From Escherichia coli (GTDB lineage: Bacteria; Pseudomonadota; Gammaproteobacteria; Enterobacterales; Enterobacteriaceae), in NCBI RefSeq assembly GCF_003334335.1, contig NZ_QOWQ01000005.1: a stretch of 64,000 nucleotides of DNA. One strand, given 5' to 3'. Shown piece by piece: positions 48,557 to 52,909 of this stretch; the first letter of the stretch is position 1; every line of letters starts with the position of its first letter. Position numbers and translations under genes: made by a program. Under the pieces are notes generated by a model that did no database searches, was not told where the DNA came from, and saw nothing but the letters and a program-made list of their open reading frames with translations.

Positions 48557-49747
48557 CTATGCCGCATTCCCTTTCGCCATGGGAGCCAGTGCCGCAGGCA
48601 ACTCTTTACCCAGCCCCTGCACCAGCGAATCTTGCGTAATTTCGCTGATCGATTTCGCGCCAGTCAGCGTCATCGCCACTTTCATCTCTTTTTCGATCAG
48701 ATTTAGCAGGTTAGCTACACCCGCCTGGCCCGCTGTTGCCAGCGCATACAAGAAAGCACGACCCAGCAGTACGGTGTCGGCACCGAGCGCAATCATACGC
48801 ACGACATCAAGCCCGTTACGAATTCCGCTATCCGCCAGAATGGCTATATCACCTTTCACCGCATCTGCAATAGCAGGCAGTGCACGGGCGGAAGAGAGTA
48901 CACCGTCCAGCTGGCGGCCACCGTGGTTAGAAACCACAATTCCATCAGCACCAAAACGTACTGCATCGCGCGCATCTTCCGGATCGAGGATCCCTTTGAT
49001 CACCATCGGGCCATCCCAGAAATCGCGGATCCATTCAAGGTCTTTCCATGAGATGGACGGATCGAAGTTATTCCCCAGCCAGCCGATGTAATCTTCCAGT
49101 CCGGTCGGTTTGCCGAGATAAGCTGAGATATTACCTAAATCATGTGGACGACCGTTCAGGCCCACATCCCACGCCCATTGCGGATGTGTCACCGCTTGCA
49201 AGTAGCGGCGCATTGCCGCGTTCGGGCCGCTCATACCTGAATGCGCATCACGGTAGCGTGCGCCCGGTGTCGGCATATCCACGGTGAAAACCAGCGTCGA
49301 ACAACCCGCTGCTTTTGCTCGCTCCAGCGCGTTACGCATAAAGCCGCGATCGCGCAGTACATAAAGCTGGAACCACATTGGGCGCTTGATGGCTGGCGCG
49401 ACTTCTTCAATCGGGCAAACGGAAACCGTCGAGAGAGTAAACGGAATACCATGCGCGTCCGCCGCTTTGGCTGCCTGAACTTCGCCACGACGCGCATACA
49501 TGCCACACAAACCCACCGGAGCCAGTGCCACCGGCATCGACAATTTCTCATTAAACAGCGTCGTTTCCAGGCTTAAGTCGGACATGTTTTTCAGAATACG
49601 CTGGCGCAGCGCCACTTCTGACAAATCTTCCACGTTGCGGCGCAGCGTGTATTCAGAATATGCACCACCATCCATATAGTGGAACAGGAACGGCGGCAGA
49701 ATGCGTTGCGCTGCGGCGCGATAATCGCTGGCTGCGGAAATAATCAT
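48557..49747 (-). CDS. lldD: L-lactate dehydrogenase (FMN-dependent)
   Basis: 396-aa alpha-hydroxy-acid oxidase-family ORF. Confidence 0.92.
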
Positions 49748-50520
49748 GCGTTTTTCTCCCTCGAATGCTCATTATGCTCACCGGGCAGGCGGGTAATCCG
49801 TGCGTGGCGAGCCTGATCTTCATCGAATCGTTTCATGGTGGTGTGAACAAAACTAAGGTGCGCCATCATTGCTTTACGCGCCCCGTCAGCATCACCGGCA
49901 AAAATGGCGTCAATGACAGCCTGATGTTGTTCGGTCAGTTGTGAAAAAACCGGTGGCACCAGATACATCCGCTGACGGCTATGCTTCACTGAGGATTGCA
50001 GGACATCGAAGAAACCGCGCATGGTTTGCAGCAGCACGATGTTATGTGAGGCTTCGGCAATCGCCAGATGAAAACGAACGTCCGCTTGTGAGGCGATATC
50101 CGGGTCTTCACTTAGCGTTGCTTCAAAGCAAAGCTGAATCTTTTCTTTGTCGCCAGGTGTGGCGCGCATTGCCGCATGCCATGCGGTGCTGGCTTCAATG
50201 GCGTAGCGGGCTTCCAGAATATCGAAACTGTAATCCGGATCATCGGCCATCAGTGTTTTTAGCGGCTGGACGATGTTTTGCTCCGACCATGTGTCATGAC
50301 GCCAGCGAATAAACGTCCCGCCGCCGCGTCGACTGAGCAGCACGCCTTCACTCACCAGTTTTGCCAGCGCCTCGCGCAGTGAATTACGTGATACGCCGAG
50401 TTGCATCGCCAGTTGGCGCTCAGCGGGCAACTTCATGCCCGCTTCCAGGTTTTTTTCATCAATCAGCGCCCGCACACGATCGGCAACCTCGTCTGACAGG
50501 CGTCTGGGTAAAACAATCAT
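49744..50520 (-). CDS. lldR: L-lactate operon regulator (GntR/FadR family)
   Basis: ORF 49744..50535 trimmed to [22 protein letters not shown] (258 aa). Confidence 0.88.
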
Positions 50521-52175
50521 TAAGGAATCATCCACGTTAAGACATAAGCCTGAAGCGTGGTGATCACGCCCACTATACAGGTGAAGATCAGGCTGTGTTT
50601 GACAGTAAAGCGGAACAAATCAGACTCTTTGCCCACCAGGCCTACCGCCGCACAGGCGATAGCGATAGATTGCGGGGAGATCATCTTACCGGTGACGCCA
50701 CCGGTGGTATTGGCGGCAACCAGCAACAGATCAGAGACGCCAATTTGTTGTGCTGCGGTGGCTTGCAGCGCGGCGAACAGGGCGTTAGATGAGGTATCCG
50801 ACCCGGTCAGGAATACCCCCAGCCAGCCGAGGAACGGCGAGAAGAAGGTGAATGCATGACCGGTGTGCGCCAGTGCCAGCGCCAGTGTTGATGACAGTCC
50901 GGAATAGTTCGAAATAAAGGCGAATGCCAGCACCATACCGATGGAGTAGATGGGCAGAGCCAGTTCTTTCAGCGTGCTGCCGAAGGTGCTGATAGCGTCA
51001 GACGGTTTCATCTTCAGCCAGACAATCGAGAGCAGTGCAGCAAACAGAATGGCGGTGCCGGTGGCAGAGAACCAGTCAAACTTAAACACGGCGGCATAGG
51101 CTGTAGCCTCGCTGACCACTGGCGGCATACGGGCAACCAGTTTATCGAGGTACGGCACCGGAATATTGATCACCCACTCATACAGCGCGCCACCCGATGC
51201 GAACAGGGCTTTAAACGGCGGGATACTCCACAGTGTTACGGTAGCTGTCAGGAACAGGAACGGTGTCCAGGCACGTAACACCTGACCCGCAGTGTAACCG
51301 GTGTGGGCCAGCGTCATATCAACCTGTGACGCCCCCAAATCACCAAAACGGAATACACGCACTGGCTGCCAGCGTTTGAGGAACAGCGTCAGGCAGAGCA
51401 GTGATACCAGCGAAGAGATAATGTCCGGCAGCTCCGGCCCAATGAAGTTAGAGCTAAGGTACTGAGCGATGGCAAACGAGCCGCCCGCAACCACGACCGC
51501 AGGCCACGTCTCTTTGATACCGCGCCAGCCGTCCATAATCGCCATGATCCAGAACAGCACGATAATGGTCATAAACGGTAGCTGCCGCCCCACCATCTGA
51601 CCAATCTCAAAGCTGTCGATACCTGTTACCTGTCCGGCAACCAGGATTGGAATGCCCATCGCACCAAATGCCACTGGCGCGGTGTTAACAATCAGGCACA
51701 GCCCGGCGGCGTACAGCGGTTTAAAACCCAGGCCGACCAGCAATGCGGCGGTAATTGCTACCGGTGCGCCAAAGCCTGCGGCTCCTTCAAGGAACGCGCC
51801 GAAACAGAAACCGACGATCAGCATTTGCAGACGCTGGTCAGGGGTTATCGAAAGAATAGACGAGCGAATGATGTCAAACTGCCCGGTTTTCACCGAGATC
51901 TTATAGACGAACACCGCTGCAATAATGATCCACGCGATGGGCCACAACCCGTAGAAGAAACCATAAACCACCGAGGCCAGCGCGTTAGCGACCGGCATTT
52001 TATAGAACAGCAAAGCCACGGCAAGGGCGATTGCCACCGTCCACGAGGCGGCGACGTATCCTTTCAGTTTGAGCTTAATCAGCGCAAAGAAGAAAAACAG
52101 GATGGGAAGCGATGCTATCAGACTGGAAAGCCAGATATTCCCGGCGGGATCGTAGTTTTGTTGCCAGAGATTCAT
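50520..52175 (-). CDS. lldP: L-lactate permease
   Basis: ORF 50520..52202 trimmed to [15 protein letters not shown] (551 aa). Confidence 0.88.
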
Positions 52176-52373
52176 TGCAGGTCTCCTGGAGTCCACGCAC
52201 ATCGTGTAATGAGTCTGTTGCTCATCTCCTTGTCACACGTTGTGTAAAAGTGGCACTGCCAATTGTGTTGTGTAGGGATAATGACAATGAATGGTTAACT
52301 AAATGTTATGTATTGGCAACATTGATGTGAGTTTTAATTGGGAAATTGTGAACCAGAGGTCAGATAAGCGAAG

Positions 52374-52390
52374 AATTGGTAGGGCCAATT
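52374..52390. promoter_or_regulatory. Candidate LldR operator, perfect palindrome AATTGG-TAGGG-CCAATT
   Basis: 17-bp palindrome about 200 bp upstream of lldP; matches my recollection of the lldPRD operator AATTGGCCCTACCAATT on the coding strand. Confidence 0.6.
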
Positions 52391-52546
52391 CTTGTGGGGG
52401 GAGATGTCTGGTAAAGAAAAGGGCAATCCTCATCAGAGAATTGCCCTTAGGTTGTTGATCCAGAGCGCCTTATCTTGCCGGATGCGGCGTGAACACCTTA
52501 CTCGGCCTATAGGAATGTGCAGAATCACCCTGTAGATACTGTGTTC

Positions 52547-52909
52547 TTAAAACGCGGTCTTTGAAAACCCAGTCATCTCCTGCAGGCCCATTTCGCGGCC
52601 CAGTGCGGTCATTGGGTGCACAACGACCAGTCCGCGAACACTTTTCTTCAGCTTGCCCATATCAGCCTGCTCTTTTTTGGTAATTGCGCGCTGGAATGGC
52701 ATCTTCATCAGCTTCTGTGCTTCTTTACTCAGTTTTTGGCTATGAACTTCACGCAGGCGAGCAATTTCTGCTTCCAGCGTGGCTTTCTCTTTTTCCAGCT
52801 CGGCATATTTGTCTGCGGCTTCAACCAGCGAAAGATCGGCCTGCTGGTGGCGGATGGCGTCCAGGCGATCGCTGAGACGTTTGATTTCGTTTTTTTCGAC
52901 TTCTTTCAT
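52547..52909 (-). CDS. yibL: DUF2810 family coiled-coil protein
   Basis: 120-aa [26 protein letters not shown]. Confidence 0.75.

Follow-up and report, generated by a model that had tools for sequence, protein, structure and literature searches.

Upstream of the L-lactate permease gene lldP, in the 64,000-nucleotide stretch of Escherichia coli DNA analysed here (the window), lies the 17-mer AATTGGTAGGGCCAATT. Two questions are raised by this locus: whether the repeat is an operator of LldR, the regulator encoded in the same operon, and where its partner operator is located. The original prediction described the 17-mer as a perfect palindrome matching an LldR operator of lldPRD, and sought a two-operator arrangement in AATTG-containing partial sites nearer to the lldP start codon.

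The 551 bases at positions 52100-52650 match the yibL, intergenic, and lldP sequence of E. coli K-12 MG1655 with 100% identity, and positions 52176-52546 comprise the entire spacer between the minus-strand genes yibL and lldP. The annotation of the identical K-12 locus contains mtlA-mtlD-mtlR, yibT, yibL, lldP-lldR-lldD, trmL, and cysE. The first gene of the operon, lldP (50520-52175, minus strand), encodes the L-lactate permease according to the RefSeq annotation of that locus and to the NCBIfam equivalog NF007740 (1198 bits against a cut-off of 918); its ATG occupies positions 52175-52173. It is followed on the same strand by lldR (49744-50520), whose product is annotated as a FadR-subfamily GntR regulator (NCBIfam equivalog NF007741, 499.7 bits against a cut-off of 311) and is reported in the literature to bind both operators discussed below, O1 and O2. 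The final gene of the operon, lldD (48557-49747, minus strand), encodes the quinone-dependent L-lactate dehydrogenase (annotation; NCBIfam NF033901, 824 bits against a cut-off of 550). The gene yibL (52547-52909, minus strand) is assigned by the K-12 annotation and by a score above its NCBIfam equivalog cut-off. The 17-mer, therefore, lies upstream of lldP, in the lldP-lldR-lldD operon that encodes its own cognate regulator.

The 17-mer was found exactly where it had been placed, at positions 52374-52390, that is, 199-215 nt upstream of the minus-strand lldP ATG; on the gene (minus) strand, it reads AATTGGCCCTACCAATT. Its symmetry had been overstated. The reverse complement of AATTGGTAGGGCCAATT is AATTGGCCCTACCAATT, and the two sequences disagree at positions 7, 8, 10, and 11, within the asymmetric 5-bp centre TAGGG. 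The perfect part of the repeat is the pair of 6-bp arms around this centre. In this strain, the arms reach 9 bp (AAGAATTGG/CCAATTCTT, positions 52371-52379 and 52385-52393), the outer 3 bp being unconserved in other species. Such an arrangement is rare in the window. The pattern AATTGG-N5-CCAATT has one exact match in the 64 kb, against 0.02 expected from shuffles, and when no more than one mismatch is allowed, two matches are present against 0.46 expected, both of them in the yibL-lldP spacer.

Comparison with the published lldPRD operators bears out the assignment to LldR, since AATTGGCCCTACCAATT is letter for letter LldR box 1 (PMC10272880, Table 1; PMC3582500). San Martín et al. (2013; PMC3582500) gave this sequence as the one needed for LldR binding. 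Two LldR boxes were listed in the yibL/lldP spacer by Anzai et al. (2023; PMC10272880), AAtTGGcCctACCAaTT (12/14) and AAgTGGcactgCCAaTT (10/14), scored against the consensus AAnTGGTCnGACCAnTT; in the window, they correspond to positions 52390-52374 (gene strand) and 52248-52264 (plus strand), respectively. In the same work, the yibL/lldP region gave the strongest genomic-SELEX peak of LldR (62.9) as well as the strongest gel shift, and, according to the authors, both lldP boxes are in agreement with the pair of LldR sites of Aguilera et al. (2008). When a weight matrix was derived from orthologous boxes of organisms other than Escherichia, the first box (O1) scored 22.6 bits and the second (O2) 21.0 bits, and the next best site in the window reached 9.1 bits; the training sites of this matrix and the box counts were chosen by the same AATTGG-N5-CCAATT pattern and are thus not fully independent. 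By mismatch count and by weight matrix, O1 and O2 are the two best box matches in the 64 kb.

Our own analysis contributes the identity to the published boxes, their geometry, their statistical rarity, and the conservation of the boxes and of their spacing. The best explanation of these data as a whole, in which we have high confidence, is that positions 52374-52390 are the operator O1 of E. coli lldPRD, a GntR-type inverted repeat of the FadR subfamily with the core TGGN5CCA. O1 and O2 of the window are the known system itself, base for base, and nothing about O1 is new. The DNA and the locus are the same as those of the K-12 operators (Aguilera et al. 2008, J Bacteriol 190:2997; Anzai et al. 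2023, PMC10272880), and there is no difference between them. The value of the present analysis is corrective: both operators, the transcription start, and the ArcA site are now placed exactly in the window, and the original prediction proves correct in its main point but not in the perfection of the palindrome or in the place of the second operator.

The partner of O1 is O2 (LldR box 2), located at positions 52248-52264 on the minus strand (AAGTGGCACTGCCAATT on the plus strand, AATTGGCAGTGCCACTT on the gene strand), which is identical to the published box 2 (PMC10272880, Table 1). It is the only one-mismatch match to the box pattern in the window, and it is absent from the original prediction, even though it lies inside the span covered there (52176-52546). 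The idea of a two-operator arrangement thus holds; the second operator, however, is the published box at 52248-52264, and neither 52333-52350 nor 52279-52300. According to PMC3424551, LldR has two sites, one on either side of the start site.

The positions of the operators relative to the transcription start were derived indirectly, via the supplement of Park et al. (2013) and via citing papers. The ArcA string of Park et al., given with genome coordinates and described as '-49 to -7', is found at window positions 52292-52334; consequently, the derived +1 of lldPRD is position 52285 on the minus strand, O1 extends from -105 to -89, and O2 extends from +22 to +38. O1 is then centred at -97 and O2, the slightly weaker box, at +30, so that the partner lies across the transcription start from O1. 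The centre-to-centre distance is 126 bp, or 12.0 turns at 10.5 bp per turn, a phasing that may be linked to looping between the two sites. As an internal check, the same coordinate mapping sends the published genome position of the PdhR box to the centre of O1. The abstract of the Aguilera study reportedly gives -105 to -89 for O1 and +22 to +38 for O2, in agreement with the derived positions.

For the analysis of conservation, 80 lldP loci were drawn from 100,044 species genomes by LldP peptide patterns only, unconditioned on operators, and 450 bp upstream of each lldP were scanned for boxes, which were called at a match of at least 9/12. At least two boxes were present upstream of lldP in 74 of the 80 loci. 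The density of boxes was 4.7 per kb upstream of lldP versus 0.68 per kb within lldP, and all 80 upstream regions together contained 168 matches versus approximately 13 in shuffled copies. The spacing between the boxes was 125-126 bp in 43 loci, all belonging to Enterobacterales and including genera in which O2 is located 30 nt nearer to the ATG. A spacing of 103-107 bp was found in 15 loci, mostly of Acinetobacter; Stenotrophomonas and Comamonas have 95-98 bp, Paracidovorax has 116 bp, and Thauera has 120 bp. Several of the spacings outside Enterobacterales are near whole helical turns, which is not true for 97 bp (9.2 turns) or 120 bp (11.4 turns). The gene lldR follows lldP in 78 of the 80 loci, and lldD in 75. 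These data document a two-box geometry with a 125-126 bp spacing that is conserved with lldR across Enterobacterales; in several other groups of proteobacteria, the boxes are closer together and roughly in phase. It can also be noted that outside Enterobacterales (loci L051-L081), the spacing is characteristic of each clade and the boxes are more symmetric, being of the TATTGGTnnnACCAATA type.

A MAFFT alignment of 28 Enterobacteriaceae was used to obtain a conservation footprint of the promoter region. Its islands are O1 (0.91), O2 (0.82), the GTTAAC...TGTTA block of the ArcA site (0.85), and TTGCCA (0.81); the Shine-Dalgarno sequence is conserved in this set too. Against these values, the DNA upstream of O1 scored 0.33, and the inter-operator stretch 52320-52373 scored 0.51. 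O1 is, accordingly, conserved in orthologous promoters. Within the species, 5420 of 5426 complete E. coli genomes carry the O1-O2 core once, on the chromosome. In divergent E. coli alleles and in E. albertii, O2 is invariant, and O1 varies at its first base only.

Between the two operators lies the promoter. The ArcA-P direct-repeat operator TGGTTAACTAAATGTTATGTATTGGCAACATTGATGTGAGTTT (52292-52334, plus strand) is present as an exact string in supplementary files 3, 4, and 6 of Park et al. (2013; PMC3798270), so that this interval of the window equals the published lldP ArcA site; it overlaps the -10 and -35 region of the lldP promoter. A putative -35-like hexamer, TTGCCA (52314-52319, minus strand), was assigned by its position relative to the derived +1, and its TTGC is nearly invariant in the 28 Enterobacteriaceae. 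The putative -10-like hexamer TAACCA (52292-52297, minus strand), assigned by its sequence and by the derived +1, is conserved; it follows TTGCCA at a distance of 16 bp and precedes +1 by 6 nt. A scan of positions 52100-52650 with the sigma-70 consensus revealed no strong promoter on either strand, and this outcome is consistent with a weak, activator-dependent lldP promoter.

A further short motif is located in the stretch between the ArcA site and O1. This is TCACA on the gene strand (plus-strand TGTGA at 52348-52352, approximately -63 to -67, within the region 52345-52352), which is partly overlapped by the interval 52333-52350. Its offset from the start of O1 is fixed at 38-40 nt in nearly all Enterobacteriaceae and in Pantoea, and the TGTGA counted by Park et al. 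(2013) as the last ArcA repeat follows exactly 22 bp (2 x 11) downstream of it. We consider it a possible, though rather unlikely, extra element, either a further ArcA repeat extending the anoxic operator towards O1 or a site of another factor. If it were an ArcA repeat, it could couple the occupancy of ArcA to activation by LldR; if it belonged to another factor, this could be, for example, the one responsible for the glucose repression that Zúñiga et al. (2021) described. A CRP site was considered for the conserved TTCACA and rejected by inspection: the candidate left half TCTGA is unconserved, and the spacer would be 8 bp instead of 6 bp.

The 110-nt 5' leader of lldP (52176-52285, minus strand) shows strong conservation beyond O2, at +1 to +20 and at +39 to +49, and the sequence GATGAGCAACAGACTCATT at approximately 52206-52224, outside O2, is also strongly conserved. 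These conserved stretches of the 5' UTR suggested a structured leader RNA; this candidate was dropped because the 113-nt RNA comprising the 110-nt leader and the ATG folds no better than shuffled sequences (z = -0.42).

As for the mechanism, the binding of LldR, PdhR, and ArcA and the regulatory outcomes are taken from the literature. In the proposed model, an LldR dimer would grip O1 through its winged helix-turn-helix domains. When lactate is absent, the LldR dimers on O1 and O2 would associate and loop out the promoter, so that transcription would be repressed. When L-lactate (or D-lactate) is present, repression via O2 would be relieved, and LldR at O1 would act as an activator. Phosphorylated ArcA, bound at 52292-52334 over the weak promoter between the operators, shuts the operon off in anoxia, and PdhR, which recognizes O1 weakly, adds repression at low pyruvate. 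The loop and dual-role model goes back to Aguilera et al. (2008), as represented in the papers citing that work. According to PMC3424551 and PMC5412874, the two sites flank the start, repression needs both of them, and activation proceeds from the upstream site.

The two halves of this model differ in their support. Zúñiga et al. (2021) replaced all DNA between the operators and retained lactate control; induction was abolished when 10 bp were deleted between O2 and the -10 region but not when 10 bp were deleted between O1 and the -35 region. Anzai et al. (PMC10272880) observed that lactate induction is lost in an lldR mutant and described LldR simply as an activator; in their hands, 5 mM lactate enhanced the LldR-DNA complex, and the complex came apart only when the lactate concentration was raised further, an effect that is probably non-specific. 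The evidence is thus good for activation and less direct for repression by looping. Because lactate enhanced the complex and LldR was called an activator in that study, repression by looping is also less secure than the identity of the sites. A search for a solved LldR-DNA complex yielded none for this protein, and the nearest solved relatives are PdhR entries.

Two-operator looping promoters with a dual regulator, such as AraC at araBAD, are comparable in architecture: lldPRD likewise brackets its promoter, with approximately 12 helical turns between the sites. In both AraC-type looping promoters and LldR, repression needs both sites, and the effector turns the upstream-bound protein into an activator. 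AraC and LldR, however, belong to different protein families, and looping by LldR has been deduced from genetics and spacing rather than visualised. In PMC3424551, LldR was compared with FleQ and TyrR. Among LldR proteins, those of Corynebacterium glutamicum and Pseudomonas aeruginosa share the FadR-type core TGGTnnnACCA, respond to lactate, and act upstream of an operon for a permease and a dehydrogenase. Both are regarded as plain repressors whose operator sits close to the start site or downstream of it. Two boxes that bracket the promoter, as in this window and in the 74 loci, are instead the arrangement of enterobacterial, or gamma- and beta-proteobacterial, lldPRD. The O1 and O2 operators of lldPRD have been characterised since 2008 and have served as parts of engineered lactate biosensors (PMC8689689, PMC5412874).

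Another regulator to be considered at O1 is PdhR, a close paralogue of LldR within the FadR subfamily; PdhR is the nearest NCBIfam family to LldR after its own and also its nearest solved relative. The PdhR box AATTGGTnnnACCAATT, known from the pdhR-aceEF-lpd, ndh, and cyoA promoters, has the same half-site and spacing as O1. By inspection, O1 matches it at 13 of 14 positions; the difference lies in one arm, whose seventh position is C rather than T (GGC...ACC). The O1 17-mer also appears as a PdhR box, with the same 13/14 match, in the work of Anzai et al. (2020; PMC7660256), and that work is the only source of the binding and expression data on PdhR used here. It reports a genomic-SELEX peak of PdhR at yibL/lldP, with a stated box position that maps to the centre of O1, and a 3.3-fold increase in lldPRD mRNA in a pdhR mutant. 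One could, therefore, regard O1 as mainly a PdhR operator, with PdhR being physiologically dominant and repressing lldPRD until pyruvate accumulates. The relative strength of the signals makes this improbable: the PdhR peak at yibL/lldP is weak (632-943 versus approximately 9,900 at pdhR, PMC7660256), whereas the same region is the top LldR target both in genomic SELEX and in gel shift (PMC10272880). In addition, the loss of lactate induction in the lldR mutant (PMC10272880) and the association of the two-box arrangement with lldR in 78 of 80 loci both speak for LldR. PdhR binding at O1 is approximately ten times weaker than at pdhR, and its effector is pyruvate, in contrast to lactate for LldR. 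PdhR at O1 is best seen as an additional cross-regulatory input to the LldR operator, not as an alternative identity of the site.

A different view of the second operator, the one drawn in the original prediction, combines O1 with partial LldR sites at 52333-52350 and/or 52279-52300. The description of these intervals as AATTG-containing is correct for 52333-52350, which includes AATTGG and AATTG, and part of which (CACAA) overlaps a conserved island; it is incorrect for 52279-52300 (TAATGACAATGAATGGTTAACT), which has no AATTG at all. As LldR sites, both are at background level. The best overlapping 17-mers match the box at 6/12 (52333-52350) and 7/12 (52279-52300), values reached by approximately 5% and 1.4% of positions in the window, respectively, and the non-Escherichia weight matrix assigns them -26.1 and -13.2 bits. 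The AATTGG at 52336 is, moreover, poorly conserved. The interval 52279-52300 (+7 to -15) covers the transcription start together with the -10 region and the first of the ArcA repeats, and the interval 52333-52350 (-48 to -65) lies just beyond the ArcA site and is touched by it; the published ArcA site is 52292-52334, and the second published LldR box is 52248-52264. The comparative data also disagree with these partial sites, since in 43 of the 74 two-box loci the partner box lies 125-126 bp from O1 and not 40-100 bp. We consider this arrangement very unlikely, and O2 at 52248-52264 stands as the partner of O1.

The least credible reading, that the O1 repeat forms an RNA hairpin of a plus-strand STnc380-like sRNA (52349-52457) instead of or besides being an operator, relies on an end-to-end alignment with Rfam RF02055 (STnc380; plus strand, E = 3.6e-5), in which the O1 arms make one stem and the downstream hairpin, the yibL terminator stem, makes the second, and it was rejected, as the score of 36.4 bits is far under the gathering score of 60, the plus strand has neither a sigma-70-like promoter nor a terminator call, the orthologous region of Salmonella diarizonae (L004) has no RF02055 match, and a model of this type would accommodate any palindromic operator that has a bidirectional-looking hairpin behind it. 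A literature search for STnc380 returned only the prefix match 'STnc3800'.

The DNA on the yibL side of O1 contains several elements of its own. An intrinsic terminator hairpin (52419-52448, minus strand), AAGGGCAATTCTCTGATGAGGATTGCCCTT followed by TTCTTT, is located 29 bp upstream of O1; here it ends yibL, and in other strains it ends an autotransporter gene. A REP element (52467-52507, minus strand) with a weak naRNA4 match (27.3 bits) adjoins the terminator. Both elements fall within 52176-52546, are unrelated to LldR, and are unconserved outside Escherichia. The right half of O1 with its flank (TAGGGCCAATTCT, 52380-52392) is 85% complementary to the arm AGAATTGCCCTTA of the terminator stem (52437-52449), 44 nt away, which is probably due to chance.

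Strains of E. coli also differ in what lies next to this terminator. Of 5421 complete E. coli genomes, only 1265 cover the full 551-bp yibL-lldP query. A gene of 4-5 kb encoding a YadA-like trimeric autotransporter adhesin ends approximately 190 bp upstream of O1 in all four divergent E. coli strains that were inspected (loci L082-L085, 1-350). The gene is of the ehaG/upaG type, is annotated as ehaG in an EHEC strain, and is probably carried by most strains. The K-12-type window is without it, and yibL directly abuts the REP element and the terminator (52400-52560). The homology between the K-12-type and autotransporter-type sequences resumes near position 52500.
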